Below, one piece after another: positions 17,981 to 58,190 of a DNA stretch of 64,000 nucleotides. Both the position numbers and the translations under genes were made by a program. A model generated the notes under the pieces. The model saw nothing but the letters and a program-made list of their open reading frames with translations. It had not been told where the DNA came from and did not search any database. The stretch comes from Biomphalaria pfeifferi. Its lineage: Eukaryota. The stretch spans positions 1,810,630 through 1,874,629 of the forward strand of contig JASAOG010000080.1 of NCBI GenBank assembly GCA_030265305.1. Reading direction: 5' to 3'. Numbering within the stretch: the stretch's first letter is position 1; the number at the start of each line of letters is the position of its first letter.

Positions 17981-18000
17981 CACCTTGGAACTCAATCTTT

Positions 18001-32361: not shown

Positions 32362-32587
32362 CTGATAAACAAAATAATGTCAACATTCCTATTTTGTATG
32401 AAACCTTTTCTAATGTTTGTTTGAAACACAAAATGAATGTTGTTACAGCTATAAATTCTAGTTTGTGTCCCTTGAACACTTGACAATTTAGAAGTTTAAA
32501 ATTTTAGCTTTTTTCTGCACTAATGTTTCTATCAAAAATAAAATATCAAAAGAGTTTATTTGAAATAGGCCTCCATGTCAATGCAAC

Positions 32588-32775
32588 ATGGAGGCCTATA
32601 TGAGGAAAGCGCAAACAGGGACATCCTCGTATAACTTGGCGTCATATCTTCATGGAGGACCTCAGAACAGTGGACGCCAGGTGGGAGGAGGCTTCAGACA
32701 TTGGCAGATCTTTATGGAGACAGCTTGCCGCCCAATGCGCCGAACAGCACGGGAGGACCTAAGTCTAAGTCAGTT
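32588..32775 (+). mobile_element. RTE-like LINE tail fragment in MVP intron 5
   Basis: ORF ...SYLHGGPQNSGRQVGGGFRHWQIFMETACRPMRRTAREDLSLSQ. Ends ggaggacctaag. Paralogous to 43700-43850. Confidence 0.55.
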
Positions 32776-32843
32776 ATTTGAAATATTCTACAACTGCCAC
32801 ACTAATAATAGACAAATTCTGCTGCTCTATTCCAATCATTTAC

Positions 32844-32969
32844 CTCTTCATACACATTTGGAATGTGTGTTTCTGTATCCTTCATTGTGATCAACCACTC
32901 CTCACCATTTTTCCTCACAACTCCAAAATCATCTTTGAATGTCCTCAGAGCTCTCATGTGTAGAGCTTT
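32844..32969 (-). CDS. MVP: MVP exon 5: [42 protein letters not shown]
   Basis: Acceptor ttgatttcag|. Donor GAG|gtaaat. Human [42 protein letters not shown]. Confidence 0.9.
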
Positions 32970-33933
32970 CTGAAATCAAAAGCATAAAATGATACACTAA
33001 CAAATTTAAGAACAGAAAAAATATTTAAAAATGAAACTGAAAACCATTAAGTTAGTTCTTTTCATCTTTTAAAACAAAGAAAATTTTTCATATTATATGG
33101 ATTTATTTACACACGAGGCAGATATGTTTACCTTTTTCTTAAAACAAATGGCTAATAATGGTTTCATACAGCTAACAAATGACCAAGTTTCTTGCGCCCT
33201 CAAATGTCATGACCCTTGAAATGTTGACATTACAAATCCCAGTTTTTACAACAATATTGAGAACCTTAACTCTTTATCTCTTAACAGACGATACCAATGT
33301 TGATTCCACCAGAATGTGGTAAATTAAAATAATTATGGAGAGAAAGAGTTAAAGTATGGAGGACCCCCCCCCCTCCTTTTGCCAACTTTTGTGTCTAGTC
33401 TGTACTTCAATGTGTGTCCATTTGGAATGAAAATAGATTTTTCAGACATTGATATTTTTAAAAAAATTTTCATTGGACTGAAAATTCAGTACGACTCCAA
33501 TATACAAGAATCAAGTCTAGATGATACTAGAGTGGGAGCTAATAAACTGGACTAAACACCTAAGGTTCAAGTAGCTTCCAACTATCTGATCTGAGGAATG
33601 TAAGTTAAAATGGTGAGGCAGTCCGTTGACAAAACTTTATCAATACTATTCACAACACCAAGTGCCTTTGACAAAAACTGCACTATTTAATTTGTAGATA
33701 AAAGGAGAGCATTACTTTCTCCCTGCAATATAAACTTGCACAAGACAAATAGGAAAGATCATTCCAAATAGTGTTCTATTAATAGTAGCAACAGAAGAAC
33801 AAAAAAATAGAAGATAATTTGAAGCTTGCCTGTGCTACAAAATCTAACATTAAAAATCTAATGTTGAGAGAACAAATTTAAAAGACATGAAGAAACATGT
33901 ATGCTGAAAAAAAACAGAACTATAAATGCTCAC

Positions 33934-34160
33934 CTTCTCAGTCAGGACATAGGCATTCACAACATCCACAACTTCCTCATAGGCACCAGGCAAGTAGGCG
34001 CCAGTCTTTTTTACCAGCCACTCTTCACCTGTTACTCTATCATTGCTGTCCCTGTCTGTGCATTCCTTGCGAGCCCGTAGACGAATGGCTTGATTGGGAC
34101 CAATCACAGTTGCCCGAATGGTTTCCTCTACAACACATTCTTTGCGAGGAATATATGTAC
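33934..34160 (-). CDS. MVP: MVP exon 4: [75 protein letters not shown]
   Basis: Acceptor gtttgttacag|. Donor AAG|gtgagc. Human [48 protein letters not shown]. Confidence 0.9.
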
Positions 34161-35189
34161 CTGTAACAAACAATACACATTTGGTTAAGGTTTTAGTAAT
34201 TTCCTTAAAGATAACATATATTCTTAGGCTACGTACAAAATAATGGGAAATCTTTTTACAAATTTATTTTATGTTCACAAAAAGCTTAGCCATATATTTT
34301 TTATGATAACATGCATTTTAAAATCTTTTTTTCATATTTTAAGAAATATAAAATTGCTAAAATGTAAAGTAAACATTACTCCAGGAGTTTTGTTTTTAAT
34401 AAACATTCATAGACCTTTCTTAAAATTAAGTTTTATGTTCTTTTCATTTTTTTTTTAAATTAAATTATATACAAGTAATAAATATATTTTAAATAAATGC
34501 CTTACATTTAACTTTAATCTCAAAAAGAAAATTACAATTACTATACTTGTAACTTCAGAAAGATATGCATGTGTTTTTTGGGGAGTTTTTTACATTTTTA
34601 TTTATAGCTTAAAAAAAATTTAACTTTATTCTAAACTCTTAGAAGCTATGCTGTGATTTAGTTATAAAATAAAAAATATTTTAACATTTCCAAATAACTA
34701 CAGGAACCTGAATTTTACCTGGTAATAACTGCATCTTTCGCCTTACATTTTTATACCTGCTTATTAGCATTAATCTTAGTAATCTGCACAGCAGCCTCAA
34801 CATAAATATGACAAAGAAAAAAACTGCAGATAACATTATCACAATTGTAAATACAATTGTCATTTCCAAATCAGTTGAAAAAACCTTATTTACTACCACA
34901 ATCGACAAACAAACAGCTCCACAAGTCACAAGGCCAATGTCTATCAAATCTTTTAATAAGCATTTGAGATCACATTTATAAAACTTTTGACAAGCTGCAA
35001 AATACAAAGTCCTGATGAATTTCCTCTCTAGATTCTCTAATTTTATCTGTTTTTGTTCAAGTTTAGTGCTGCTGTTAATGTGCAACAATTTGATCAGCAT
35101 GTTCATGAACTCTGACCCTGAGCGAAAACAAGGTTTGATTAACTTATTGAACTCTGACTCCATTCTATAATTTAGATATGCAGCTGTAC

Positions 35190-35313
35190 CTGGTCCTTCA
35201 AACAGCCATTCATCTCCAGCGGTTCTCTTTTCCCCATTCTCATCTTCAAAATCAAGGATCGCTCGAATCCTTAAAGCTGAGTTTGCAGGCACAACTTTTA
35301 AAGCAGTAACAGG
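35190..35313 (-). CDS. MVP: MVP exon 3: [41 protein letters not shown](G)
   Basis: Acceptor ttaacttttcag|. Donor CCAG|gtacag. Human [26 protein letters not shown]. The rest of the 221-aa ORF-track entry is intronic read-through. Confidence 0.9.
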
Positions 35314-36554
35314 CTGAAAAGTTAAAATAAAAAGAAGACTAAACATAGATATTCAGTGAGAAAATAGCAAGTTTTTAAATGTTATGGACTTGGATTAATA
35401 TCGTTATAACTCTGGTGTGACGTGGATAGTTGTATTTTTAGCAAGCTGATAATTTACACAGGCCAGCGTGAGGAAAACAGTGACAGTCAATCGTGATGAG
35501 TGGCGGTGCAGTGAAGATTCAAGAAATTATTGTGAACACTACCCAAGCCAATCACGTCAGATTTAGTGATGACCAAGAAGGATCAAGGTATATTCCAGCA
35601 GGTTCTTGAAGGCCTTGATACAGCATTACAAAAGTTGCAGTTACAGTCAGCGTTACATGCTGCCAATGTACAGTATTGGCTGTGATTTATATGACATTTA
35701 AGTGTTAAGTTATTAGATGCCCTGAGTTGTCAAGTTCTTTGAGTTGGTAGTGTGTGGTGCAGTTTGCAGGGAGTTTGAATAGTGAGAGCCATTACAATAT
35801 TAATCATAGCATAGACCAATGGGTGGGAAAGAAAAATATTTCTATTATGCCTAGGTTTGTTTTTATTTGTGCATGAAGACAGAAGAACATAACTTGTGCA
35901 TAGTTTTTCCATTTATGATGCACCAATGACTAAGGACTTAAACAGTGCGGCTAAGCACTTTCAAACAAAGTGCTAATATGGAATGTAAGTCAAAAGACAA
36001 GGAAATGCATGTTTTTAATTTCATACATTCTGCTATCATAGCCATGGTTCTATGTCAACTAGCAATATTTTACAACCAGAACACAAGATAATGCACAACA
36101 TTCTTCCATATGATTAGTCTGGAACCAGGAAATCATTTCATTGTACACTCTGCATGACTCCTACCCTAGCATAGTTCACGCAAGAAATTTCATAATAATA
36201 TTAAGTTTGGAATTTTAAAATTTGTTGGTCTGCATCCATTTCCCATGATAAAACATATATATGTATTCATGAATTTTATGGTAAGGGAATTTCAACATAG
36301 CTAGTAGAAAAATATTTTAATGTTTCCATAGTAAATTTGTTTAGAAAGTATTCAAGATAATGAAAACCAAAAATATACAGTATTATTTTTTAAATGGGCT
36401 CAGAGAATGCACAAGTTTAGCATAGCCAATATTGGAATATTAACTGGAGATAAGATCCAACTGGCCCAGTTGAAAACAGTAAGGTATTTAAAAATCTTAG
36501 ATCCTGTACAGCTTAAAGAATATCTGTACAAAGATACAGAAGCACAGTAATTAC

Positions 36555-39370: not shown

Positions 39371-40504
39371 CTTAATAACATATCCAGATCCTATTACAGA
39401 AGGTCCAATGTCTAGTATTACTATTAGATCTATATAGATCTATTATAGACTAGATCTGTCAACGTGGTCTACGCTCGATGACCATATTGGCTACTCTGTT
39501 AACAAGAAAAACATTTTTAAAATACTTTTTTTTAAACTAGAAAAGTCTGAAAAGCATTTAAAATATCCCTACTTTTGAAAAAAAAAAGACAACATACATA
39601 GGACATAGATAATAATAATAATAATCTTTATTGTCCGTATGGAAATTTGTCTTACAATTTGTGCATTACACCAAACAAAAAACATTATAACTATAAGAAA
39701 CCAAAGTGTACATTCACACCAGACTCACGCATAATTTACATGTGACAAAGTTTATACCCAGATTGTTCTTATTTAATGATTTGATTGCTAGGGGAACAAA
39801 AGAGTGTGTCTGTTTGTCTAGATATACAGAACCGTATTATTGAATGAATGAATGTTTGATTAAAAAAACAAAAAAAAACATGGAATATTTTTATCCCATC
39901 TCCCTTTTTCCACTATGATGAAGAATATTTATTGGTTAAGCGAATGTAACGTATAATATAATCTAGATCTACTACATTTTATAATTCTCCAGTGATAGGC
40001 CTTTAGATCAAGACCCAAGGCCGCCGCGAGGGTTGTGGCCGCCTGCGTGCGAAATTAAAAACATGCCGCCCACCCCCTCTTTTTTTTTTTTAGAAAAAAA
40101 AATTCATTAAGACTTAAGACAGCTGGACACTGTACATAAAGCGCTTTTTTATTTAAAATCCACTTTTGTACCATTCCTTTTTCTTTCCATATTCGCATCG
40201 TTGTCGTATCCCCATTCCCTCTAAGATGTTTTATTTTCAATTTTAACTTTGCATTTTTGTAAAGAATGAAATGAAAAAGAAAAGAAACTTTCTTAATTAT
40301 AACATACTGTTTAGGTTTTATTTTTCATTTATATTTTTAACACTATGTATTGAATTCAAATTTAGGGAATGAAATTTCACTAAAATGAGTCAGTTTCACA
40401 GACCTACCAGTATATAATAGGCCCATGGTCAATTTTTGTTTTCCGAAATAGTGTTGCCTAAATAAATTGTAAGCGTTGTAAAAGTTTCTTCATGGAGATC
40501 TTAT

Positions 40505-40700
40505 CTTATCTTATATAATACAGACGTTACTTCAAAAAAGAAGATGATTACGTCCTACGCGTCATGCATTTAGTCATGCATATTAACCAATGACTTAAAT
40601 TCTGCCAAGTCACTGGTTTTTCTGGCTAGCTCAGGCAACCCATTCCATGCTCTAATAGCACCAGGGAAGAAGGAGTATTTGTACAAATTTGTCCTAGCAT
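40505..40700 (+). mobile_element. Same element family, copy 2
   Basis: acagacgttacttcaaaaaagaagatgattacgtcctacgcgtcatg...ggcaacccattccatgctctaat. Confidence 0.45.
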
Positions 40701-42331
40701 AGATAGAATTGAAGATGCGGAAGATTTTCGCTCAAGTTGGCAAGGGTTTTGATTCCGGGCGGGACTCGGCGCTAAGCGTCTTCTGGCCTTTTTCTCTTAG
40801 TAATAAGAGAGAATTTTAAAAAGGTTAATATTGATGTGTTTTCTTTCAGCGCGCACTAATCATCCTAAAAAAAGTAGAGGGCCATGTTTAATCTAATAAT
40901 AAAGAAACAGCCCTGGCCAATAGTACGCCTACATATTGCGCACGTACGTCTGTATGGGCGTGATCTTTTTAAAAATATTCTTCCTGTTAAGTAAGACGTC
41001 TCTGTCGTTGACGTTTTTTGTCACAAAGAAGTCTCTAATATAAAGTGCCATTGGATGAAGAAATTCGACTATTCTGAGACCACACAAAAATAAAAATCCA
41101 GAAGAATCACACTCAAATGTTTTCTTGAAAACGTTTTGACCAATATTGTTGCACACGGTGCCTTGCTAAAAGCGGTGAAAGGTCTTATTAGAAGATAACA
41201 CACCGTCTCCTACTTAATTAAGATATTTTAATTTTTGAAAATGTAATTTTCTAATATACAAATAAATTACACTGAAAATAAAACATTTTTTCGCAGCCGT
41301 CTCTCATTGTTGCTAGTTGGTCGTTGACTTGTCGCTACAAACAGCTAGTTCAAGTGAACCAATGAAGGCGTTTTATATTTTTACTAAATAAGCTTTAAAT
41401 AACTTGAACAAACCTCTTATGTGAACGAAAAATCAAAATAAATAACTGTTATTACAATTTTCACAGATTTAATTTTAGAGATCTAATATTAATGAAATTT
41501 ACTGATATTTAAACGAAATTCAGCTCACCACAAAATAACGACTATATTCTTTCATGTCTCAATATTGTCTGACATTTTACATTTGCACTTCCGGTATGCA
41601 AATTTCATCCTCTTAAATGCATAACCACCAATCAATCGCTTTACCTCTTCTTACCTCAGCCTAGGGAACACACACACTCTATAACACCTTTTGTCAGGAA
41701 GTTGCTCCCCTCCCAATTCTATGTAGAACGTGACAATGTTTTAAAATTGACTTTCTAATTTCTTGATCTACTTACAGGGCGGGCTATTCGACTCGAAACA
41801 AATAGTACAAACAACCTGCGAAAATTCAAGATCAGGAAATAGTCGGCGTTTATGAAAAAATCCGTGGGGATCCCTCGCGCGTCGCTTTTTTTTTCTTAAT
41901 TTTCTTAATAATTTCTTATTGTACAAATATCGTCTGTCTCCCTCCCCCACCCCCCAGTTTTCAAAGGATAATGGAATCAGTAGAATTTAAATAAAATATT
42001 TAAGTTTTTTATTAAACCAAAAATTTAAACAAAAATTATTCTTGGTATAATGTTTTGGACGCCCCTTACATTCGGTCGCCTGCGTGCAATGCACACATTG
42101 CACAATAGGTAGTGGCGGCCCTGTCAAGACCATAGATCAAGACATTGGAAGACGATGCTCGCAATGTTTTCTTTATTAATTTTTTAAAAACTATTTAATC
42201 AATGTAGAGAGAGAGAGAGAGTAGTCCTTAAGGGAATGCAAGCACGACATGGCCTAAATTGTGCCAATGTGCCTAAAATCAAAATCAAATCAAATCAATA
42301 TACGTTATATCGTAGTTTGAGTTCAACCTCC

Positions 42332-42395
42332 CCCCCCCGAAATAAAATTCCCCCCCCCCCCCCCCCCGAAGGAGGGGGGGGGGGATCGGAATTTA
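42332..42395. repeat. Poly-C (18) / poly-G (11) palindromic tract
   Basis: cctcccccccccgaaataaaattcccccccccccccccccgaaggagggggggggggatcgg. Confidence 0.9.
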
Positions 42396-42439
42396 GTCAC
42401 TGATTTTTTGCTTTGATTTTGTTTATTTTAGGTGAGATT

Positions 42440-43400
42440 TTAATACTAAACCATCACTTGCCCCAGCACAACCAAAGGGGTTTTGAGTTTAAAACCCCAT
42501 ACCAGGGGGTTTTGAGTTTAAAACTCCCTACCAGGGGGGTTCGAGTTTAAAACCCCTACCAGAGGGGTTCGAGTTTAAAACCCCATACCTGGGGGTTTTC
42601 GCAGTTAACTCCCCCTCTTCTATAAAACAAAACAAAAAAATGCAAACGAAAATCCCCTAATTTCAAGAGCACAGTTAAGGAAGATTATGATTTTAAAACC
42701 CCCTCTAAAATTTACGATAAACCCCCTCTTTAACATAAAAAAGCTAATTACGCACTCAAAATGTAATGAGCATAGTTAATTGGGTTTTGACTCGGTTTTG
42801 AGTTTAAATCCCACTTCAGCGGGGTTTGAAGGTAACAAATACCTCTTTAATAATAAATACAAAGCAAATTATACACTCAAAATGTTATGAGTGTAGTCAA
42901 AGGGTTTTAAGTTTAAACTCCCCTCCAGTGGAGTTTGAAGCTAAAAAGTACCTCTTTAATATAAATAAAAGCAAATTACTCACTCTAAAATCTATGAGCG
43001 TAGCCAAAGGGGTTTTGAGTTTAAACCCCCCGCCAGTGGGGTTTGAGGCTAAAAATACATCTTCAGTGTAAGAAAAAAAAGCAAATTACGCACTCAAAAT
43101 GCTATGAGCGTTGCCAAAAGAGGTTTTAAGTTTAAACCCCCATTCAGAGGGGTTCGATGCTAAAAATACCTCTTTAATATAAAAAAAAAAAGGAAAATTA
43201 CACACTAAAATTATTTGAGCGTAGCCAATCCAATTGGGGGTTTTGAGTTTAAACCCCTCTTCTACAGATGGCTTTTTAAAAAAATTAAAACCCCTCCAGA
43301 TGGTTTTGAGTTTAAGATCCCCCTACAGAGCATTTTGAGGTGGAAAACCCCCAACAAATGATTTTGACGATAAAACTTCTCTTTTCGATATAACATCTAA
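42440..43400 (+). repeat. Minisatellite array 1: five palindromic units of about 30 bp (ggggttttgagtttaaaacccc...) then about six units of about 115 bp
   Basis: Visible tandem periodicity. The long units each contain tatgagcgtagccaaaggggttttgagtttaaacccc...ggggtttgaggctaaaaatacctc. Confidence 0.85.
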
Positions 43401-43439
43401 AGCAAACTACAGTCACTTAATTCCAAGAGCGTATTCAAG

Positions 43440-43860
43440 AGAGGTTACACATTTTTACCAGTGGCAGGGCTCCATTAATAAACTGAAGTGAATAGTCATC
43501 TAACACTAAATGTGGCTCAACAAAGATGGCTAAGACAGATTTTAGGAGTCAGTTATAGAGATCGGGTCTAAATCAAGGAAATCCTATGCCGAACTGGGAG
43601 TCGACCCCTTAGTAAAATTGTGAGAGAGCGACGCAAGAGGTTTGCGGAACATGTTCTCCGACAAAATGAATTACGCATAAGAAGATTTGCAATGATATCC
43701 TAGTACAACTTGATGCCATTCATTCATGGAGGTCCTCATGGCAGGTGGGAAGAGGCTATAGACATTACCAGTGACAGATTTTTACGGAAACAGCTTGACG
43801 GCAAATGCGTCGAACGGCGCGGGAGGATCTAAGTCAGTAAGAATAGCACATTAGGTTTTT
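43440..43860 (+). mobile_element. RTE-like LINE ORF2 C-terminal fragment abutting array 1
   Basis: ...QQRWLRQILGVSYRDRV.IKEILCRTGSRPLSKIVRERRKRFAEHVLRQ... carries the RWRWIGHTLRK-type motif. Ends ggaggatctaag. Confidence 0.55.
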
Positions 43861-45179
43861 GAAATAGAACTTTTTAATAGCAGGAAAATGCACTGTAGAT
43901 ACCTCAGAATATGCATATTGTTGGCTTTCAATAACAGAAATAATGCTTGGCGGCGGGGCTTCGCCCCGCGCTGGGGAACTCCTAGACCCCCTTGCTAGTA
44001 ATGGCGGGGTATCTACAATTTTTCCACTAACTCATGGAAGAACCTATTCTAGGGCACAATAAACGTCTTCCGAAAGAATGAAGGGTCAGAATGTAATAAA
44101 GACTATGTACACACACATACATAAATACATATACAAAATATTTCGCGGGGGGGGGGAAATCTACCCCCTTAACCCCCCCCCTTTAGAAATTGAATAGAGG
44201 TATTGCAACACAAGAATACCATTTAAAATACTTTAATATTGTTATTTTTAAAGGCGATACCTCCTTAAGTACAATTTATAGAGCGATATCGTCGCAATAA
44301 ACTTTCCAAGACGATTCGAGTCCTAAAATAAATGGTAGGCCTACACCATAGACTTATATAGGTCTAGTAGCTATAGATCTATATAGGCTAAGTCTATGGC
44401 CTACACCTTTTTAATTTGACTTTGCAATTATACCATCGATATTACTTTATGGCAAAAATGCTAGAGTTTTAACTAAATATTTATATGTATAAGGGCCAAT
44501 TGTAAAAATATATAGTTATTAATTATTAACTCTAAATTTGATACTTAATAAAATACAGACTATTAGGCCTATAAATCATTACCACATATATAGACCTATG
44601 TATACTTTCAGTCTCTCTCTCTTTTGTCTCTTAATTGATTTCAAAATATTATACCGGGCTGGTACCAGAAAATATTTATTTATATGGTAAATACTTGTGT
44701 GGATTACTTAAACCAAAAATAATAATAATATAAGGCTTGTCGAATCTTTACGTACGAAGATTAATGAGGAGTGCATTACTATTTAATGTGGCTATACTAT
44801 ACGCAGCAGCCCCAGCTGCGATTTACATATTTTGCCACATTCAGTGCATACATAATATAACCATTGTCGATTTAGGTTCTCTTTTCGCCGTCTACGAGTT
44901 TGTCCCCGGCAGTGTATTTTCTTTTGCTCTCTTATGTGTATCCCTCGGCCTTTGACAGTGATAGCTGTTTTCCGAAGCTGCCTGCAGCCAGGTGCTCTCT
45001 TCTATGTCAGTTATTATTATAGAAATAAATTATAAAGATCTACGATTTTTAAATAAGCATTACACATTTATTTCCATCTAGATATATCTATTAGATTTAC
45101 ATGCAAGAGATGACTTAATTCTAGACCTAGAATCTAGCCTAGGGAAAAATCTAGATCTTGGATGTAGAATCTAGATTTG

Positions 45180-45405
45180 TACGCAGCCACTCCCCTTGAC
45201 CTGTAAAGTGTTATCTCAACAACGAGCGACAACTCTCGAAATTCATGTAATGTGTGTTCCTGGCTAGCTGTGTCAAAAGACCAATCCAAGGGGGTAAATT
45301 TTGTTTACATTCTTCTGTTCCCCCCTGAAAAAACCTAATTGTGGACTCTAGCGAATGTGTTAATGTTGCCAGATGTGTTGTGTTAGTTTACGCTGCAGAA
45401 GGAAA
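45180..45405 (+). promoter_or_regulatory. Candidate promoter of the HAD-like gene (CpG-containing, gaccaatcc CCAAT box about 45280)
   Basis: Local GC/CpG enrichment immediately 5' of the ATG within otherwise AT-rich DNA. Confidence 0.3.
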
Positions 45406-45704
45406 ATGGCATGTTCAGGAAGCAAGCCCAGTAAACAAGTAAAAGCCAGATTGGATTCCTTCGTGCTAGCATTAACGAAAAAAGGCATCAAGCTTCTAGC
45501 TATGGACTTTGACAAAACCCTAATCGACATTCATTCTGGGGGAACGTGGACAGAGAGTGTTGACAAGCTCGTCCCTCACGTTCGACCGTGCATGAGAGAT
45601 TTGTTGGAAGGAGCAGTCAATAAGGGAATATTTGTAGCTATTGTAACATACCATCGACAAGGATGGCTCATCAAAGATTTGCTTCACAAAGTTTTGCCAA
45701 AGAA
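45406..45704 (+). CDS. HAD-superfamily hydrolase-like protein, exon 1: MACSGSKPSKQVKARLDSFVLALTKKGIKLLAMDFDKTLIDIHSGGTWTESVDKLVPHVRPCMRDLLEGAVNKGIFVAIVTYHRQGWLIKDLLHKVLPK(K)
   Basis: Kozak gaaaATGG at 45406 (the ORF track starts at a weaker ATG, 45373). HAD motif I is DFDKTL (DxDxT). Donor AA|gtaagc at 45705. Local GC rise and a CCAAT box upstream. Confidence 0.65.
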
Positions 45705-47522
45705 GTAAGCTTTTACTTTAGACTTCAGATTCTAGTAATTATTAAATATTCTAGATCTAGTTTATATAGTTGTAAATAGTTTAATCATGAAAATTTTGAA
45801 AGTGAAGACGTTTATTTGTGTAACATTTTATTAAAAAAAACAACTAGAGATACTATACTATATATTAAATAATAATATATTATATATATATAATTATATA
45901 TAGATCTAGATCCCCTAGATTTATTCTATTCTATGTTATAATAATAAGGTCTAGATTATACTTCTAGAGTAGATCTAATCTTTTATAATTATAAAGTCTT
46001 TACTAATAATCAAAACTAAATAATTGTTCTTACTTGTCTTTTAAAAATAAAAAGAAATAAATGTAAAAACCTCATTAAGTTAGTGATTATGGTAGGACCC
46101 AGATCTAAGCAGTCATCTAACAGATTAACTTCAATTTTAAATTTTGGCTTTTCACAAATTTTGAAGATAATATGAAATATTTGGATACCTATCGAGACAA
46201 CATAAAAACCTTGTACAAGATACCTCCAAATGTCCACAAAAGAGATTGGATCCTAGTGCACTGATTATGCTTAGCATGAAACATGTACTGTACAAAAGTA
46301 ATTTAAAAGTATTTTTTGTTGTTAATGTTTGCATTCACTAGCAGAGGCACACAAGGTGAACAGGCCTTCTCAATAAATCCCTGACTTTAAAATCCTAAAT
46401 GGAGAATCATTGGCTTGATGGTTGAGCAGGCAGAAGAGGAAATTTTTTTTGAAGTTTGAAGATGAATACTTAACTGATTAACTGTTCTCAGCTAATTAGT
46501 GCTGACCATAAAAAAAACTGATTTAAAAAAAAAATTGACTACCATACTGTGGAAAAAATTTTTGTCTGTTTTCATGGAATTATACCAGGTAGCAATAGAG
46601 TTTCAACACCATTTCCTAGTAGAAAATACATATAAAATCTACCTCTTGATGACCTTTTTAAAAAATTAAGAAAAATCTAATTTGGAAAATTATCTAGAGC
46701 AAGTTATATATATATATATATATATACAATGTACATATCACAGGAAAGTCCTGGAATAGAATATTTAATAGCAAGATTATAAAAATGATGTTCACATTAA
46801 AATGACTAGGAAATGTCAATCATGAGACTCAACTTCGAAGTTTAATACATGATTTTTCCAAAGGTTTATAATTTTATTATCTCCTTCAGTGACTTTGGTT
46901 CATCTCATAGATAATCAGATGAAAGCCTGGTCATTGGAACAATGTCCCCCACACATTTTTTTTCCTTACAGCTTATGTGCCCAAAGGATTGATGCAGTTT
47001 GAGATCAGTGGCATCTCAGATTTTGCCATGGTTTAGCACTGTTGGTAGCAAGCTGCCTATGGTTCACTGGCTCCTGATTATTCTCAGGGTTGACTCCCAT
47101 ATTATATGAACAAATAGACTTATATGGGCTTTATATTAGAGCCTTTAAAATTATTTTTTTTTAATTTACTCCTTTAGTAGATTTTTTTTTTAAATTCTTA
47201 AAATCAAATACATCATTATTAGAAAACATTATGTTGTATTACATTCAGATCTTTTAACTCAGATTAGGACATAAATCTTTAAATTTTACTCTAAACAGAA
47301 TAAATCCAGCTGTAGACATTGCACCCACCCTTATGAAACTGTTAATCTTAGAATGCCTCAATTTCATTCACCTCAGATAGGCAACAACCTAGCATGATCA
47401 ACATGCAGTGTGATAGTGACCGTCTCTAGAAAGTTGTCATTTTACTGTATATTTCTCATTTGCATGCATTTTGGGTTTTACTTCTTCAATGTATTTTTTT
47501 TTTTTACTGTCAGATTCATATT

Positions 47523-47524
<2 letters not shown>

Positions 47525-47565
<41 letters not shown>
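47525..47565. repeat. (TA)n microsatellite in the HAD-like gene intron
   Basis: tatatatatatatatata... Confidence 0.95.
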
Positions 47566-47568
<3 letters not shown>

Positions 47569-47893
47569 CCATAGATTGAAAGGTCTGAAATGAAAGGGAT
47601 ACTTTACATTTACTTTTACTATATATATTTATATATATATGAATATATTTTTTTAGTGACTGATGGTAGGTTTTTAAAAAATGTGCTTGATAAATGAAAA
47701 CAATAATTGCCACAGGAGCTCTACAAACCTGCTAAAGCTTTCGTCCCATCTTCCCCTCCCCAGACATGAATATCTATGCTTATTCTCTTATCTGAGAGTT
47801 TGGCAGTCTTGTTTGTTTACATTCAATTGAATAATTCTCATTATACTGTTTTATTATTGGGTAAAATTAACTTTTTTTCGTTTGTATTTTCAG

Positions 47894-48215
47894 AGTCGCT
47901 AATAAAATCTATGTTCAAGGAAACACATCAGATTTCATGCAACGTCAGAGGTCACTAACTTCAGGGTTATCAGATTCTATTGCGGGAAGGTACGTTATGC
48001 CAGAGTTAAATGGCAAAGAGGCTCACATAACAGCTGTCTTAGAAGAGATCCAAAAGGAGCACAATGTCTCTTTGAAAAAGGATGAAATTCTTTTAATGGA
48101 TGATGACATGACTAATGTCCGCATTGCTTGCAACAATGGGCACTATGCCATGCTTGTCCAGCCATATGTTGACTATCCCACGTTTTCATCCTTTGAAACT
48201 ATGCTTGTACTTTGA
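47894..48215 (+). CDS. HAD-like protein, exon 2: (K)VANKIYVQGNTSDFMQRQRSLTSGLSDSIAGRYVMPELNGKEAHITAVLEEIQKEHNVSLKKDEILLMDDDMTNVRIACNNGHYAMLVQPYVDYPTFSSFETMLVL*
   Basis: Acceptor tgtattttcag|. In phase with exon 1; total 206 aa. HAD motif IV-like LLMDDDMTNV completes the fold only in the spliced model. TGA stop at 48213-48215. Confidence 0.65.
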
Positions 48216-51200
48216 ATGCATCCAGCAAATCTTCTTTATTTCCAGTGCATGGAAAGGATATTCTTGAGTCAGACAAATAAAAGACAATGGATAGTTGTTG
48301 AACTTGGTTCTGAAAATCTCCTAGTGTGAAATATTTGCGTAATTTAACACAAGCTTATTTTAACTCTTATCCTATAATTGTCCAAGCTGTATGTAATATA
48401 CAGGGTTAACGAAAAAATCCCAGTACACAAAAGTATATGATGCATTGCATTGTTTATTACTGTAAGAAAACTGGTATCTGACAATTATTTTTATTTTTAA
48501 TTTTTTTTTTCCAATCTGTTTAGTTGACCCTGTGTTGGAAACATGAGGCAATTTAAACTCGATATATTATACCAGTAATCAAAGTGTTTGAAACAATTGG
48601 AAAGAATTAGACTTCAATTTTAAAACTGTTTTTTTTTTCAGAAGCAAGGGAATAATTAATTCAGGAATTTCATGCTTTCTGAGAATTTAATTGGCTTTTT
48701 AAAACATCAGTCCTCAAATTAAAAATTTACCCCATTCTTCTCCTGCTTTAGTATTTGATCCATCTTTTAATCACTGAAAATCAGGCAGCCAATAGCGTTG
48801 TTCAAGTAAACACCAATGCTTTAAAATGGCATGAAATAAAGATATATCTTAATTCTGTGTCTAATTTCTGCCGATTTCTTGATGATATTAAAAAGCAACA
48901 ACAAAAAAAAAAGACTTAAATTTGTTTTTCTGTTTTGAATATTAAGGTGCTAATTTCAACAACTGTCAAGTTTTTATTTATTTTGTAATTGTTTTTTAGC
49001 AGCCTCCATAGAGAAAAACTGCTTCTGTGTTTGTGCTTTTTGTCATAGTTAAATCTCAAGCACCAAAGGTTTATTGAAAATCAGATTTTACCACCCTTTT
49101 CCTTGTGCTTATAATCTTTTTAATGGCTATGTTTGGTCTTCCAAGAGCATGTTTGTGTATTATTCACATATGTGTAAATCGTTTAAAAAAACAAGGTGAA
49201 AAATATAGTCTCTGCTTTAAAAAGAAATGTCCTCTATAAAAATCAATACTCCAGTCTTCAACATGCACTTCATCGATACAGCAGCTACTTACTTGCCTTC
49301 TGATTTTGAAAATTAGTAACACATTTTTATACATAAAAGTAAAACCATATTAAAATCAAGAAAAAGCAACTAATGATCTTTTTTCATTAATGCTTTAAGT
49401 TAAGCAAACACATGGCGAAAGTTTATTGTGGCCTTTTGCGTTCTTTATATATCCATTTACTTTTTTTTTTCTTAAAAAAAAATGAAAAAGGGACTTTGTA
49501 TTATTATTGTATTGCATAGCTGCATGCAATCTATATATTATTTTAGGTGCTCTTTACTATTCATTTAGTTCATTTGAACAGTATCCATCCACACTGTTTG
49601 GTTTGGTTTCTTAAGTTAGATACAAATTCTTCTGATATAATTATTATTCTACTTCATTTATTTTTTTATTATCTACTCAGTAATACACATTTTATAGGTA
49701 TGTTGATATAAGATGCACTTGCCAGGACGTTGCTTCAAAAAAGAAGATATATAAAAAAGTGTGACAAAGAACCTCATTATTTTTCTCCTACAAAGTCTGT
49801 TAATGATAATGATTGCCTTCTAGTGACAATTTATGGTCACTTGTGAATTTGACTAGATGTAAGTTTGTATGTGTTGCACCAGGATGTTTTGGCATTATTT
49901 AAATTCAAATGGAGATTAGTTGGGTTTTTTTTGTTGTTGTTTTTTTTGTTTACATTTAATAGAGACTGGAGTCAATATTTTTTTTTAAATTTATATAAAT
50001 AATTTAATGAATCTCTTTTCTCAAACCAAAAAAAAATAAAAAGGTTTTAACTTCTAACTTGATGTTTGATCAACCTTTTATTTCACTTTTATTTCTTTGT
50101 AGATGTGTTTCTATGAAATCTGTATACAAAAAAAAAAATATTTTTCTTTGCTTTAAAACCAAGGATTTTAGGTAGAGACTCTTGTTTTTGTTTACAATTT
50201 TAGGATATTCATCCATCTTATACGAATGCCTTTTTAGTAGCACTTAAGAGGTTGATTTTCATGCTTGCCACATGGCATTCTAAAAAAATAATTTGTAGAC
50301 AACTGTGTAACTTAACTGAAACTGACATTTTAAATTAGAAAAAATAAACTTTATCCTCTTCTTTTTCCTCTTGGTCAGATCTAGTCAGTATTTAAAGAGT
50401 TTATTTAAATATTCAAGGAGACTTTTTTACTAGTTTACTAAAGCAAATAGATTTAAGTGAAATTACACATAAATATATATATATATATATATATATAAAA
50501 CAAATGTATAATTTCACATGGCCTATACAAGGGAACACTAGTTATCAAAGCTAATTTTTGGCTTTAATAATAATAATTATTTTAAAACAAAAAAGCTAAA
50601 TGAGGCAAGTTTTCCTTTTTCACACTTTTAATGATATAAGAAATCTAAAAGGATAGTTGTGACGCTTTTAATGTGGATATTTTTTTTTTCAGGATTTAAA
50701 ACACAGAAGTATAGCTGTGCACATATTGCACATTGATTTATTATTTGACTCAATTTAATATAAAGTATTGATCTACTTTTTCTATTTTTGTCCACCAACT
50801 CAAAGACAGTACAGAATTGATATGTACATAGGTTCCACTTCAAATGTAAATACATTTACTTCTCTTACAAAAAAAAAGTGGCTAGCTTAATTATTGTGAT
50901 TCAGTCACATGGCGATAATTTTTGTTAGCTGTATAAATTTATTTTTGATTTTATGAGTTGTGAGTTGTTTTTTTTTTTTGTTTGTTTTTTTAATCATGTT
51001 TTATCAGTAATGCCATTTTGTTACTATTTTTTTTTTTGTGAAGAGCCACATTAACAGTTGGGGTTTCTAGCAGTGTTACAATAATAATGACTTGCAAATG
51101 TATTTTTCATTAATTTGTTTTCTTAACTGTGATTGTGAATCTTAACTATTTGTGAATTTTGTTACACTTTCATAAACCCCTGTCCATTTTAAACAAGGGT

Positions 51201-53639
51201 TGTTATCTTGATTGATTGGTACAAAAATACTTGCTCTTTCAAACCAGTAATGTATTTTTTAACTTAATTTTTATTCTTGCAAGCATTAAAAATGTAACGG
51301 GCCTGTATTTGTATTTTATATTTTTGCATCAACACCACCCTTAAGATATTGGGACTAGTATATTATACAGAATTTATTGCTATGAAGCTTGCTTAGTATT
51401 AAATAAGCAAGGTATTTTATTTCATAGTGCTATGGTGTTGATGGATTTGGGGGTTCTATAGAAAAGTTATAACTGTTAAAGGATTCAGTCAACAGCATGT
51501 CTTGATTGAAGCAGTATTTCTCGGAATCAAAGATGATTATCAAGTGTGGCTTATTGTGGAGAGACCACATTTTTTTCATTCATTGTATCTCACTGAAACA
51601 AACATGGCTACTTGAATTTTTGAAGCCATCTTGTGATTCAGTGCATGAAATCATTCCTGATACAAGAAAGGGTTTTAAAATTGTCACAAAAAGATACCTT
51701 TATATTGGATTTGCAAGTTTAGTAAATAAAAAGTTGTCACAATAAGAGAAAATAAATTAGTACATGCTGACTTAGCCGGTTGTCTCATCGCTCAGAATGA
51801 TATTTTTTATCAAAATGTTCTCATTTGGGACAAGTTGGGGGAAAGGGGCTTTTACGGCTGAAATGAAAAGATCAGATTTCTGGGTAAAATAATTTGTACA
51901 TTCAGGAAATCAGAATGTGACCTTAAGTCAACTTTTGTTTATTCTAGTAAAAAAACTTTTTGATGATGGATGGTGACCAACATAACCTCAGCATTTCTTT
52001 AAATAGAAGTAAATGCAAATAAAAAAAAACACAATATTACATTGTACATGTTTTGTTTATGAAGTTTATTATTGAGATATAAACTTTTCTACCTTAAAAA
52101 ATCTGTCCTTTATTTGCTTGTCTGTATCTGTCAAAAAGTAATATTTTTTTTGTTTTTTTTTTAAATTCAGCTTTTGTGTTTTAATACTATTTCTTTTGCT
52201 GTCTTGATTAAAATAAGCTTTTTATCTGTAATAATTAATTTATGATTTTTGGCAAACTCAGGTTTATTTCTCTATGCAGCAAAAAAATAATTTTTTTTTT
52301 CCACCATATTATCTTCTTATCTTGTACAGACGTTACTTCAAAAAATGTTCCAATTAAAAATATAGTTTTTGAAAAACTACACAAAATTCAGTTTACATGA
52401 AGAAAATTTAATTACGTTTTTGTTTTAAATAGTGTTTTGCTTTTATAACTGAATTTTAGTGCTTCATTGTTACTTAATCATTTTAGGGCAATTAAGATGT
52501 ATGCATTTTAATTTTTTTTTTGTATATGGTGCTTATCATAGGCTATTAGATTAGTTCTATTTTTCTTTAGTTATTTTCATCTTATGCAGCTTTTTTTCTT
52601 AACACAATTAACCTACTTAAGTGTATGCTGAACACCCACTCAATAAACAATTTTGTGAATTAATAGATTAAAAAATAAAATAAAGAATTCTTTGGATTTG
52701 TTTTAAACATGGTTACATTCAGCCATTTTGTTTTAAACCTCAGTAGCATTAGAATAAATAATCTCTGTATTTAACTTGTCCCTGTAGTTTGCTGTACAGT
52801 TATGTGGTTGACTATTTAATATACGGCATCAATCACACACACACACATAAAATATCAACAAACTATTGATAGTGTAAATCCTTATTGACCGTGACATTTA
52901 GTTGGTTGTGAATATGCTTTGTTGACGGGAAAGCGCAAAAAGGGTTGTCTTTCAGTGAAAACTTTTCTTTCATTGTTTCTGTACCGGTATCTGAAAAAGG
53001 TGCGAGCAACTATGAAGTAACAGCAGCTGGAGAAAGCTCTGTTCATATGCATTTCATCTATTTCTTATTTCAAAATATTTTTTTTAAAGCAAAACAAATC
53101 ATAGATTTTTTTTTATGACAGTTCAGTAGTACTGTTATAATTTTGGTTTATAAATTGTGTGTACTCATCATGAGCACCCCCCTCCCACTCAATTAATTTT
53201 TTTTATCTAGTGTACATATACAGTTTTTTTGTCATGTTGATTATTCAGGAATGGCACTAGGTATACCCCATTGCATTTGTTTTACTTCAGTTAGTTACTG
53301 GAGATATGTGTTATAGACATAATCCTAAACCATTGTGTTGCTTTTTTCATTATGTGATTGGAGATGGATTATTTGCACACAATCCTAAACATTGAAAATC
53401 AAAATGTTTTTTTTTATTTTCCTTTCTTTTAAAACTGTGGAGATGACAAGCTTTGATTTGTGCCAATTGTATATAATTTGAGAATGTATCTGTTTAGGTG
53501 GTCCAATGAAGTGCCTGTGGACCTGGAAATTACAAACTTAATTTTTTTGTGTGTGTTAATATTTCAGTCTCATTAAATTAAATTGGAAGAATAATGTGTA
53601 CGTTTTTTTGTTTTTATTTTTAACTAGCATTACCCACCA

Positions 53640-54260
53640 GCTTCACTGTTGATTTTTTCCCAGGACCCCCTGCTATTTTTTCTTACTCTTAACAATATAA
53701 TGATATGAAGTTAAACGCTCCCCCATACATTTCTTTGACCATCTAATTCTAGCATCTATTACAGAAAACGATTTACAAAAGGTTAATAAGACTAATAGCA
53801 ATGTATGCAAGTGAGACCCGGTCACTGATAAAGACAACCGAAAATCTTCTGAATACTTGAGAGCAAAAAAATTCTAAATTCTTTTTAAAAACCTATGGTG
53901 CTATATAAGATGAAACAGGGTGGATGGCACGCATTAACCATGAGATGTATCAATTGATTGAAGACCCACCGATAGTGACAGAAATTGAAAAAAGAACAAA
54001 CTACGTTGGGCAGGTCACCTTGGAAGAATGTCAGACAACAGAGGAGCGAAAATTGTATACCGGCAAAAATCAAAGGCAGACCCCGAATGCGATGGATTGA
54101 TGATGTGGAGGCAGATCTACAACTGCTTGGGTTATGGCGTGGAGAAGAAAGGCTCAGGAGAGATCTGAATGGTGAGATGTGTTAAAGCAGGCCAGAGCCA
54201 GCCATGGACTGTAGCGCCACTGGGGTGGATGGACGGATTACATTGAATCGGACCAGCCCG
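53640..54260 (+). mobile_element. RTE-like LINE ORF2 C-terminal fragment (frameshifted) abutting array 2
   Basis: ORF 53985-54185: ...KIKGRPRMRWIDDVEADLQLLGLWRGEERLRRDLNGEMC is the canonical GRPR.RW.DD...DL tail. Confidence 0.65.
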
Positions 54261-54349
54261 TAAATTCGAGTATCACATCTCCTCCACTCCACCCCCACAA
54301 CTTTCATCCATTACAAGTCTTTTTTTCAATTTCGGCAGATGACTATTCA

Positions 54350-55288
54350 CTGTACTTTATTAATGGGGCTCAGTCACCGGTAGAAATTTGTAACCTCTCT
54401 TGGCTACGCTCATGGAATTAGGTGACTGTAGTTTGCTTTAGATTTTATATCGAAAATGGAAGTTAATCGTCAAAATCAACTGATTTGGGGGGGGGGAGGG
54501 TTTAAACTAAAAAATCTCTGGATTTTTTTTTTAACAAATTCAAAATCACCTTAGCTACGCTCATAGAATTTGGTGACTGTAGTTTGCTTTAGAATAATAT
54601 TGAAGAAAGAGGTTTTCAAACTCAAAATTCTCTGTAGGTTTTTTTTTTTAAACTTTAAAAAAAGCCCTCTGGAGGGAGGGGATTTAAACTCAAAACCCCC
54701 TTTGGCTCATAGCTTTTTAAATGCGTAATTTGCTTTTTTTTTTTATATTTAAGAGGTATTTTTTAGCTTCAAACCCCGTCGAAGGGGGGGGGGGGTAAAA
54801 TTAATTTTATATAATACAGAAGTTTTTTTCAAAAAAGAAGATGATTACGTCCTACGCGTAATGGCTACGCTCATAGCATTTTAAATGCGTAATTTTCTTT
54901 TTTATTATATTGAAGAGGTATATTTTTTCTATTCAAACTCCGCTGGAGGAGATTTAAACACAAAATGCCCTTCGGCTACGCTCATATTGCTATTTTTTAT
55001 ATTAAATAGGTGTTTTTTTTAGCTGCAAACTCCGCTGGAAGGGGGTTTTAAACAAAACCCATCTTTGCTACGCTCATAGAGTCAGGTGACTGATGTATGA
55101 ATAGTCTTATATTGAAGAGGAGGTTTTATCGTAAATTTCGGAGAGGGTTAAAATCAGAATCTTCCTTAGCTATGCTCTTGGAATTTGGGGATTGTCGTTT
55201 ACATTTTTTTCTTTTGTTTTATAGAAGAGGGGTGTTTAACTGCAACACCCCCCGGTAGGGGTGTTTTAAACTCAAAACCCCCTTAGCT
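54350..55288 (-). repeat. Minisatellite array 2 (same family as array 1, inverse orientation)
   Basis: Units ...ggctacgctcatag.attt.aaatgcgtaatttgc...aaactc are the reverse complement of the array-1 units. The boundary segment 54360-54460 is near-identical to the reverse complement of 43350-43450. Confidence 0.85.
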
Positions 55289-58190
55289 GCGCTGGGGCAA
55301 GTGATGGTCTAGTAAAATAGTCACTGAAAAGTTTTAATGTAGGCTATTTTGACAATGTTCATTCGATTTTAGCTTGTTGTTTATGGTTGTACCTAAATCA
55401 GGAGCGGACTGGCTATACCGGCATTCGGGCTAATGCCCGGTGGGCCGGTACCAAAATGAGTCGCCAGAGCCATCGAAAGGGCAGCATGAATGTAATAAAG
55501 TTTTAAAAGTTTTATATTCTCTTATAAAAGTAACCCTTTAAGAGTCGTGCTTTTTTAAAAATTTGTACAGACTCTACAGGTTAATACTTATTTAATCTAA
55601 CAAATTTTCTAAAATAATGTAATAGCCTACATCCGTAGACATTAGTAGGCTCCATCATTTTATAGCCTACACACTTAGCGATTAAAAAGCCTATGTTTCT
55701 TATAAAGATATAGAGTTCACTGTATGCATGCGTACAGTTATCGATACATTATCAAACTTAACATAATGACTTTGAGGACATGTCAGACTGGTGGCCGGTC
55801 ATTTCATCCTTGGTTACTTCATGCCGGACACCTCATCCCCAGTCATTTCATCCCCAATTAAATTTTGTTTTCTTTGTCATTGTGTAATTGTGCTGTTAAA
55901 TCTTTGCCTTTAAGTCCTTATTTCATCTAATAGGCTATAAACATAGTTTGTTTAAAATACCTTTTTATATTTTTGACTTGTTATTATAGTTTTTATAGTG
56001 TTTCCCCTTCTCTCTTCAGACTTGTTGAGAAATGAAAGAATATATTTCAATAAGTAGATCTATTGTAATGCGGAGTTTTGTATTTAGTTATATTGTTTCT
56101 GTTTCTTGTAGGGATGTCAATATTATCCTGCGCATATAGCGTGATCAAAGCCCAAGGTGTGGTGGAAGGAAAAATCTTTTGAGAGATAGAAGAACAATTT
56201 GAATAATTATGATCACGCCGCTCTGCGCTCATGATTTATCATCAAAGTCCAAGGTGCGCTGGGGCAAGTGATGGTCTAGTAAAATAGTCACTGAAAAGTT
56301 TTAATGTAGGCTATTTTGACAATGTTCATTCGATTTTAGCTTGTTGTTTATGGTTGTACCTAAATCAGGAGCGGACTGGCTATACCGGCATTCGGGCTAA
56401 TGCCCGGTGGGCCGGTACCAAAATGAGTCGCCAGAGCCATCGAAAGGGCAGCATGAATGTAATAAAGTTTTAAAAGTTTTATATTCTCTTATAAAAGTAA
56501 CCCTTTAAGAGTCGTGCTTTTTTAAAAATTTGTACAGACTCTACAGGTTAATACTTATTTAATCTAACAAATTTTCTAAAATAATGTAATAGCCTACATC
56601 CGTAGACATTAGTAGGCTCCATCATTTTATAGCCTACACACTTAGCGATTAAAAAGCCTATGTTTCTTATAAAGATATAGAGTTCACTGTATGCATGCGT
56701 ACAGTTATCGATACATTATCAAACTTAACATAATGACTTTGAGGACATGTCAGACTGGTGGCCGGTCATTTCATCCTTGGTTACTTCATGCCGGACACCT
56801 CATCCCCAGTCATTTCATCCCCAATTAAATTTTGTTTTCTTTGTCATTGTGTAATTGTGCTGTTAAATCTTTGCCTTTAAGTCCTTATTTCATCTAATAG
56901 GCTATAAACATAGTTTGTTTAAAATACCTTTTTATATTTTTGACTTGTTATTATAGTTTTTATAGTGTTTCCCCTTCTCTCTTCAGACTTGTTGAGAAAT
57001 GAAAGAATATATTTCAATAAGTAGATCTATTGTAATGCGGAGTTTTGTATTTAGTTATATTGTTTCTGTTTCTTGTAGGGATGTCAATATTATCCTGCGC
57101 ATATAGCGTGATCAAAGCCCAAGGTGTGGTGGAAGGAAAAATCTTTTGAGAGATAGAAGAACAATTTGAATAATTATGATCACGCCGCTCTGCGCTCATG
57201 ATTTATCATCAAAGTCCAAGGTGCGCTGGGGCAAGTGATGGTCTAGTAAAATAGTCACTGAAAAGTTTTAATGTAGGCTATTTTGACAATGTTCATTCGA
57301 TTTTAGCTTGTTGTTTATGGTTGTACCTAAATCAGGAGCGGACTGGCTATACCGGCATTCGGGCTAATGCCCGGTGGGCCGGTACCAAAATGAGTCGCCA
57401 GAGCCATCGAAAGGGCAGCATGAATGTAATAAAGTTTTAAAAGTTTTATATTCTCTTATAAAAGTAACCCTTTAAGAGTCGTGCTTTTTTAAAAATTTGT
57501 ACAGACTCTACAGGTTAATACTTATTTAATCTAACAAATTTTCTAAAATAATGTAATAGCCTACATCCGTAGACATTAGTAGGCTCCATCATTTTATAGC
57601 CTACACACTTAGCGATTAAAAAGCCTATGTTTCTTATAAAGATATAGAGTTCACTGTATGCATGCGTACAGTTATCGATACATTATCAAACTTAACATAA
57701 TGACTTTGAGGACATGTCAGACTGGTGGCCGGTCATTTCATCCTTGGTTACTTCATGCCGGACACCTCATCCCCAGTCATTTCATCCCCAATTAAATTTT
57801 GTTTTCTTTGTCATTGTGTAATTGTGCTGTTAAATCTTTGCCTTTAAGTCCTTATTTCATCTAATAGGCTATAAACATAGTTTGTTTAAAATACCTTTTT
57901 ATATTTTTGACTTGTTATTATAGTTTTTATAGTGTTTCCCCTTCTCTCTTCAGACTTGTTGAGAAATGAAAGAATATATTTCAATAAGTAGATCTATTGT
58001 AATGCGGAGTTTTGTATTTAGTTATATTGTTTCTGTTTCTTGTAGGGATGTCAATATTATCCTGCGCATATAGCGTGATCAAAGCCCAAGGTGTGGTGGA
58101 AGGAAAAATCTTTTGAGAGATAGAAGAACAATTTGAATAATTATGATCACGCCGCTCTGCGCTCATGATTTATCATCAAAGTCCAAGGTG
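55288..58190 (+). repeat. Macrosatellite: 967-bp unit in 3.0 near-identical tandem copies
   Basis: Unit starts (tgcgctggggcaagtgatggtctag) at 55288, 56255 and 57222. Identical 61-aa minus ORFs recur at 967-bp spacing. Array ends at an internal sub-repeat around 58190. Confidence 0.95.

Follow-up and report, generated by a model that had tools for sequence, protein, structure and literature searches.

Two old, inverted copies of a non-coding repeat around a HAD-like gene of Biomphalaria pfeifferi are probably separate insertions

Introduction

Composite transposons and inversion-mediating palindromes share a layout in which two inverted copies of one sequence lie around a gene. The same layout is found in a stretch of 64,000 nucleotides from the snail Biomphalaria pfeifferi (assembly GCA_030265305.1, contig JASAOG010000080.1, positions 1,810,630 to 1,874,629 of the forward strand), here called the window, in which a gene for a HAD-like protein stands between two minisatellite-bearing arrays of opposite orientation. 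An earlier note on this DNA had offered two readings, namely that a composite or cut-and-paste element carries the gene and has the arrays as its ends, or that the arrays are two independent insertions of a satellite-carrying element, which would still form a palindrome prone to inversion or deletion of the enclosed gene. We consider it probable, at about 0.82, that the arrays are separate, old and decayed copies of one non-coding interspersed repeat family and not a functional pair. The locus differs from composite transposons and palindromes in that its arms are 77% identical and of different age, with one of them missing in the sister species, and in that it shows neither flanking target-site duplications (TSDs) nor any observed inversion.

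Two groups of described elements come close to the repeat itself. Non-autonomous elements of the Helitron/Helentron type (HINEs) with satellite-like centres include Cg_HINE of Crassostrea gigas, DINE-1 of Drosophila and the bivalve pearl/CvA-type elements (PMC7492417, PMC4067079). HINEs are recognized by subterminal inverted repeats of 11-13 bp, located 2-4 nt from the 5' end and 38-60 nt from the 3' end, by a short stem-loop 8-35 nt from the 3' end, by insertion in T-rich sequence or TT without a TSD, and by central satellite-like tandem repeats between left and right modules (PMC4067079, PMC7492417). The other group consists of 5'-truncated long interspersed nuclear elements (LINEs) and LINE-tail retroposons with a repeat-bearing 3' untranslated region (UTR).

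Results

Two inverted copies of one repeat

The window contains two collinear, inverted copies of one non-coding repeat of ~1 kb, an arrangement far beyond chance. Copy 1 (42307-43501, plus strand) is full length at ~1.19 kb and comprises a head, a 29-bp array, degenerate units, a 111-bp array and a tail. Copy 2 (54337-55324, minus strand) measures 988 bp and has a truncated head; it was delimited by an inverted-repeat search, BLAST and the orthologues in Biomphalaria glabrata. The copies are 10.8 kb apart in opposite orientation, with the HAD-like gene between them. A BLAST search with 42300-43700 against the whole window returned only the self match and 54337-55314 on the minus strand (E 2e-40 to 2e-45), and thus no third copy in the 64 kb. 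The inverted-repeat search resolved the arms into several pairs, of which the outermost lies at 42444-42528 and 55230-55314, another of 136 nt and 83% identity at 42561-42696 and 55148-55283, and the innermost of 128 nt and 87% identity at 43374-43501 and 54337-54464. That the arrays belong to one family and face in opposite directions, as the earlier note had it, was confirmed by Tandem Repeats Finder (TRF), the inverted-repeat search and BLAST.

Both ends of the repeat could be placed. In the pairwise alignment, the homology of the two copies breaks off abruptly at ...AGTGAATAGTCATCT, which is 43501 in copy 1 and 54337 in copy 2; the ~100 bp noticed before as reverse complements at the inner boundaries are real, and this is their sharp end. 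At the other side, the copy 2 orthologues of B. glabrata begin with ATCGTA...; homology with them, together with the orthologous flank ...CGTTAT, puts the left end of copy 1 at 42307-42313 and takes in a poly-C/poly-G hairpin at 42330-42395. The head of the B. glabrata copies reads ATCGTATGCTGGCATGGGCGTTGCCAGGGG..GGAATTCAACC..CCCCCCGAAAT.. and then continues into the poly-C/poly-G hairpin, all of it common to copy 1 from ~42307-42313. In copy 2 of the window, ~215 bp of this head are deleted at a junction with microhomology. Both arrays are thus present where they had been placed before, except that copy 1 starts ~130 bp further left and copy 2 runs to ~55324. The end coordinate that the earlier note gave for the second array, 55288, is the start of a 967-bp triplication (see below).

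Comparison with Biomphalaria glabrata

B. pfeifferi and B. glabrata split ~3.0 million years ago (PMC10075465). Orthologous loci were reached through the cluster of the HAD-like protein in three B. glabrata assemblies, here L002 (GCA_025434175.2), L003 (GCA_025434165.1) and L004. Window positions 33000-59500 are collinear with all three, with plus-strand matches only and 88-96% identity; the major vault protein (MVP) gene lies upstream in each of them and the LYR gene downstream in L003. The enclosed block, which the earlier note had proposed to look for as inverted or absent in related assemblies, is neither, and has the same orientation in four of four genomes. The Lymnaea stagnalis locus (L006) has no MVP gene within 10 kb and no repeat, and gives no information on polarity or synteny.

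The histories of the two arms differ, because the right arm is orthologous in B. glabrata and the left arm is not. Copy 2 occupies the orthologous site in L002 (25845-26761, 917 bp) and L004 (18969-19880, 912 bp), with its inner junction to a LINE kept, and in L003 just ~135 bp of its tail are left beside a 2.05-kb deletion. A counterpart of copy 1 was found in none of the three assemblies. The anchors ...CAATATACGTTAT and TAGAAATTGAATAGAGG... are 1.87 kb apart in the window and 170-280 bp apart in B. glabrata, where the DNA between them is unrelated sequence that occurs nowhere in the window. The 1.87-kb patch with copy 1 was either gained in the lineage of the window or lost in B. glabrata.

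The deletion of ~2.05 kb in L003, at 18980/18981, corresponds to window positions ~54478 to ~58019. It removed most of copy 2 together with ~1.4 kb of the outer flank, and one of its breakpoints is inside the repeat. L002 and L004 lack this deletion, so that the locus differs between B. glabrata assemblies.

Divergence and local rearrangements

Divergence was taken from a four-way alignment of copy 1, copy 2 and the B. glabrata copies of L002 and L004. Copies 1 and 2 are 77% identical over 866 aligned columns, with 445 gap columns and a Kimura two-parameter (K2P) distance of 0.28, and the longest exact run that they have in common is 22 bp. Copy 2 and its B. glabrata orthologues are 92.6-93.0% identical (K2P 0.075). 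Copy 1 does not resemble copy 2 in the same genome (77%) any more than it resembles the B. glabrata copies (79-80%). The arms therefore show no trace of gene conversion, and they appear to offer little substrate for homologous recombination.

All structural changes seen are local, at or beside copy 2 (the L003 deletion, the head deletion and the 967-bp triplication), and none of them rearranges the enclosed block. The triplication is a perfect tandem repeat of 3.0 copies (55288-58190, plus strand) that starts inside the head of copy 2. Its 967-bp units are 100% identical, its junctions show AGSTG microhomology and B. glabrata has the sequence only once; either the duplication is very recent or the assembly produced it. 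Copy 2 of the window also has two units more than the B. glabrata orthologues, and therefore the length of the array changes over time. Slippage or unequal exchange, possibly assisted by the hairpin units, would account for such changes.

Ends and internal structure of the repeat

Copy 1 and the copy 2 orthologues have the same ATCGTA... end, and the repeat runs from ATCGTA... to ...GTCATCT or, on the other strand, from AGATGAC... to ...TACGAT. No terminal or subterminal inverted repeats above chance were detected in three full-length copies when the first 80 nt were compared with the last 100 nt; the best end-to-end inverted match was 5-8 nt, and among 200 shuffles of each of the three copies 18, 198 and 197 gave an equal match. 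TSDs or flanking direct repeats were found neither around either copy nor around the whole 42307-55324 unit, and TSDs outside 42440 and 55288, a check proposed in the earlier note, did not turn up. An 8-bp candidate (AGGCTATA) around the LINE and copy 2 in L002 was rejected, as it spans a B. glabrata-specific insertion and is at chance level. The flanks of the insertions are not T-rich, with ...ACGTT(AT) and ...CTTCGCT before and AACACT... and GCCGAAA... after the insertion points.

A full repeat is 0.9-1.2 kb long and consists of a G/C-run hairpin head, a body of degenerate ~111-bp units and a unique tail of 65 bp. The head hairpin (C9...C18 GAAGGA G11; 42330-42395, plus strand) folds with -21 kcal/mol (z = -2.3), and its motif is also present in the B. 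glabrata copy 2 orthologues; seven of the eight G/C runs of at least 8 nt in the window are within or beside copies of the repeat. Units of 29 bp (GGGGTTTTGAGTTTAAAACCCCATACCAG), identified by TRF and folding, follow at 42477-42599 (plus strand) in 4.3 copies. A single 29-bp unit folds into a hairpin with a stem of 9 bp (-7.7 kcal/mol, z = -3.3), and for the whole 29-bp array z is -4.2; copy 2 and the B. glabrata orthologues contain only ~1.5 such units. The 111-bp minisatellite proper (42794-43228, plus strand; TRF) has 4.0 units with 80% matches between them and degenerate units on both sides, and nhmmer matches to the unit extend across 42692-43439. TRF detected in copy 2 a 92-bp period of 1.9 copies at 54901-55078. 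The core of the ~111-bp unit is a 22-bp hairpin; over its entire length, the 111-bp unit does not fold significantly (z = -0.7). The earlier description of the arrays as a hairpin-forming minisatellite consequently holds for the 29-bp unit and not for the whole 111-bp unit.

The tail (43371-43501, plus strand) is made of the last degenerate unit and ~65 bp of unique sequence up to the end given above, and is 87% identical to 54337-54464 on the opposite strand. Read in the plus orientation it has no stable fold, the last 82 nt giving minimum free energies of -1.3 and -1.8 kcal/mol with z > 0. Read in the opposite orientation, the repeat has the G/C hairpin of -21 kcal/mol beginning ~35 nt from its end, and the B. 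glabrata copies have an additional CTGGCA...TGCCAG stem. An insert of ~65 bp (..ACGCGTAGGACGTAATCATCTTCTTTTTTGAA..; ~54797-54862, minus strand) is nested in copy 2; the B. glabrata orthologues have it and copy 1 does not. Its motif recurs at 242-296 and 5511-5558 of an unrelated B. glabrata locus (L005), and the insert is the 3' tail of another interspersed repeat.

Adjoining LINE fragments and further insertions

A 5'-truncated LINE fragment, recognized in translation by C-terminal motifs of open reading frame (ORF) 2 (...RERRKRFAEHVLR...), forms the inner flank of copy 1 (43502-~43850, plus strand). A related fragment is found in introns of the MVP gene at the B. glabrata loci, and there is no Pfam match; by its motifs it may be RTE-like. 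A second fragment, again found in translation, covers the C-terminal part of a LINE ORF2 (...LRWAGHLGRM...GRPRMRWIDDVEADL...; ~53700-54336, plus strand), with its stop at 54182 followed by 154 bp, and adjoins the tail end of copy 2 at the junction that is kept in B. glabrata. The DNA compared (the window and the loci) contains no further copy of this second LINE, and the two fragments show no similarity to each other. LINE fragments thus do adjoin both inner ends, as had been noticed, and are both on the plus strand rather than mirror images; the symmetry of LINE tails inside the two boundaries is superficial because the fragments are unrelated.

The 1.87-kb block that only the window has (42313-44182) contains copy 1, the first LINE fragment and, at its right edge, a G/C-run piece resembling the head of the repeat (44133-44182). 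This likeness is one of low complexity and scores about equally in both orientations. The piece was considered as an inverted G/C-run terminus of the block and rejected on these grounds, direct and inverted alignment scores being about alike.

Stretches present in the window and not in B. glabrata are also located just left of copy 1, at 40020-42126 and 42205-42293, and the former includes an antisense LINE-like C-terminal motif (40573-40731; ...FFPGAIRAWNGLP...). The region from 40.0 to 44.2 kb is a nest of lineage-specific repeat insertions. The flanking repeats at 42060-42126 and 55400-55500 (minus strand) differ, yet they have similar G/C-rich ends (...GGTAGTGGCGGCCCTG and ...TAGCCAGTCCGCTCCTG), which may be termini of one further element family.

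The enclosed gene and its neighbourhood

The HAD-like gene has two exons on the plus strand, at 45373-45704 (with an alternative start codon at 45406) and 47894-48215. The spliced product is 100% identical to the B. pfeifferi protein KAK0054161.1 and 99% identical to B. glabrata proteins, with 2-3 residues different, which by itself points to B. pfeifferi or a very near relative as the source of the window. It has a DxDxT motif and sub-threshold NCBIfam matches to MDP-1 and HAD-IIIC, and no Pfam match; judged from its sequence, HAD-like (phosphatase-like) seems a reasonable label. We regard it as an ordinary resident gene and not as cargo.

Exons of the MVP gene are located at 26500-35400 on the minus strand of the window, and Vault repeats were called in the B. 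glabrata loci; the position of this gene is ordinary conserved synteny between the two species. In L002, an insertion of ~6.7 kb (12196-18921) lies in the intron of the HAD-like gene and has no counterpart in the window, L003 or L004.

Search for relatives of the repeat

With head, middle, unit and tail as queries, nhmmer detected no additional copy, either in the window or in L002-L006. An exact-pattern scan of metagenome contigs with TCTAAAGCAAACTACAGTCAC gave no relative. The 20-mer GGTTTTGAGTTTAAAACCCC had one metagenome match, in the contig Ga0302320_10248256 (L001), with an alignment score of 61-67 against 39-53 for the reverse-strand control. This contig was rejected as a relative, having only motifs in common with the repeat, and a single 20-mer match is the chance expectation. 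Positions 2090-2190 of this non-coding, eukaryote-like contig contain GGTTTTGAGTTTAAAACCCCTCCAGA and, ~45 nt upstream, ..CTACTCCCCCCCCCCGAAACGAATTT, the latter reminiscent of both the head motif and the hairpin unit; taken as a whole, the alignment does not exceed the reverse-strand control.

Pattern scans of bacterial and archaeal genome contigs gave no match, or two bare 21-mer matches in bacterial metagenome-assembled genomes, and viral contigs yielded no match at all. The 111-bp array is read through by an 81-aa ORF, with which a protein search was likewise without result, and a full-text literature search for six sequence strings of the repeat found no paper. The search with the LINE ORF of the window led to one B. 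glabrata locus, L005, in which there is no copy of the repeat. A representative-protein search with the transposon protein P0023, followed through its cluster members, led only to ENA contigs, Littorina and Elysia, and nothing in ten ENA loci (155 kb, 40.5% GC) resembled the window. Looking up P0001, P0022 and the exon-1 ORF as exact sequences returned no contig. A scan for promoters and terminators of the bacterial type was set aside as irrelevant to a snail.

Discussion

Origin of the inverted pair

The comparison with B. glabrata supports two independent insertions of a satellite-carrying element as the probable origin of the opposite-orientation pair, and the different histories of the copies agree with the second reading of the earlier note. 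For its first reading, in which a large composite or cut-and-paste element ends in the two arms and has the HAD-like gene as cargo, there is hardly any room left, even though two inverted copies of the same family do bracket a gene. B. glabrata lacks the left arm and yet has the right one, with gene order (MVP, HAD-like and, in L003, LYR) and orientation unchanged. The arms and cargo of a composite would be present or absent together, and here three B. glabrata assemblies have the cargo and none has the left arm. Whether or not the left arm is there, the gene has the same surroundings, which excludes a composite mobile unit. Moreover, the arms have an identity of 77% and many indels between them, copy 2 of the window is cut short at its outer end, no TSD lies beyond the outer ends and the repeat is without terminal inverted repeats. 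We also think it very unlikely that the locus is a functional or unstable large palindrome, with arms that recombine and flip or delete the enclosed gene. The inverted arms of ~1 kb each, 10.8 kb apart, would suit such a structure, as would the instability at copy 2 (the 2.05-kb L003 deletion, the head deletion of ~215 bp and the 967-bp triplication from the head). However, these rearrangements are one-sided and have microhomology junctions, and so are not exchanges between arms; the inner flanks are not duplicated, and the block has one orientation in all four genomes. The arms of a palindrome of this kind would be near-identical and kept alike by gene conversion, whereas here the longest exact identity is 22 bp, the overall identity 77%, and gene conversion has left no sign. 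With so little exact identity, many indels, the same orientation in four genomes and only local changes, the idea that the enclosed gene is prone to inversion or deletion is weak.

A different matter is how copy 1 arrived. It may, although we consider this rather unlikely, not have transposed at all, and have come in a 1.87-kb mixed-repeat patch that was copied from another place in the repair of a break, the break having also cost ~170 bp of the original sequence. The difference between the species is indeed a replacement and not a clean insertion, with 170-280 bp of B. glabrata DNA that lack a window counterpart; the patch is made of three unrelated pieces (repeat, LINE fragment and G/C-run piece), and it has no TSD. 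Nested insertions followed by a deletion, or a loss in B. glabrata, would nevertheless give the same pattern. Some observations weigh against our reading of separate insertions and of the repeat as defined here. The K2P distance of 0.28 between the copies, compared with 0.075 between the species, would fit an old copy 1 that was lost in B. glabrata. LINE fragments at both inner ends are not quite what one would expect of a tail end that is a true terminus, and the sample consists of two independent copies and the orthologues of one of them.

Class of the repeat

Several classes were considered and rejected. The repeat is not a short interspersed nuclear element, as ARAGORN found no tRNA genes and no Rfam family reached its gathering score, TTTT runs occur all over both strands, and a length of 0.9-1.2 kb is too great. 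Neither is it a miniature inverted-repeat element or another DNA transposon with terminal inverted repeats, nor a composite of two of these, there being no terminal inverted repeats and no TSDs. Canonical Helitrons have 5'-TC and CTRR-3' ends and insert between A and T; the ends of the snail repeat are neither 5'-TC nor CTRR-3'.

A non-autonomous, HINE-like element of the Helitron/Helentron type is conceivable, though on balance doubtful. Like HINEs with satellite-like centres, the snail repeat is a short non-coding interspersed repeat of a mollusc with a tandem array between unique flanks, ~60 bp of unique sequence after the last unit, hairpins near one end, a variable number of units and neither TSDs nor terminal inverted repeats; satellite-carrying architectures are widespread among molluscs (PMC7492417, PMC4067079). 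When the repeat is read on the opposite strand, strong hairpins are found ~30-90 nt from the 3' end, and only in this reading would it agree with the 3' palindrome of HINEs. It differs from them in that subterminal inverted repeats are not above chance, the flanks are neither T-rich nor TT, the 5'-TC and CTRR-3' ends are missing and the 65-bp tail is without a palindrome in the plus orientation. Its hairpins are long G/C runs at the other end, and no autonomous partner is known; no Rep/helicase ORF was detected in the window or the compared loci that could serve for comparison.

The best single guess for the spread of the family, and a tentative one, is the 3' tail of a LINE-type retroposon, which we rank slightly above a Helitron-like element, although a single ORF2 junction was seen. 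Read on the opposite strand, the repeat would be a satellite-bearing 3' tail; copy 2 would continue upstream into the end of the LINE ORF2, copy 1 would be a 5'-truncated, tail-only copy, and ATCGTA/TACGAT would be the common 3' end. Consistent with this, the plus-strand ORF2 stops at 54182, 154 bp before copy 2, in the order and orientation expected for an ORF followed by its 3' UTR, and strong hairpins lie 30-90 nt from the shared ATCGTA end. LINE-tail retroposons similarly occur as independent copies with one common and one variable end. The snail repeat differs from them in the absence of TSDs and of a poly(A) or simple-repeat terminus, in its single junction and in a UTR that, at 1.3 kb, would be unusually long; the missing TSDs, the missing terminus of this type and the lack of a second copy of that LINE count against the assignment. 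A much bolder proposal is most improbable, namely that the repeat represents an undescribed mobile class of planorbid snails (with a G/C-run hairpin end and a minisatellite body, without terminal inverted repeats or TSDs, moving by a rolling circle or as a single strand outside the Helitron/Helentron rules) and that the B. pfeifferi-specific pair forms a quasi-palindrome polymorphic for inversion or deletion of the HAD-like gene.

Significance

Striking inverted repeats around a gene can be the chance neighbourhood of two old copies and then matter little, and one comparison with a sister species is enough to settle such a case. For the annotation of Biomphalaria genomes, it is of minor value that an interspersed, satellite-carrying repeat of ~1 kb now has defined ends and lends itself to classification across the genome. 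The locus further shows arrays of this kind seeding small local rearrangements, in which units are gained and lost, stretches are deleted at microhomologies and a tandem triplication arises.

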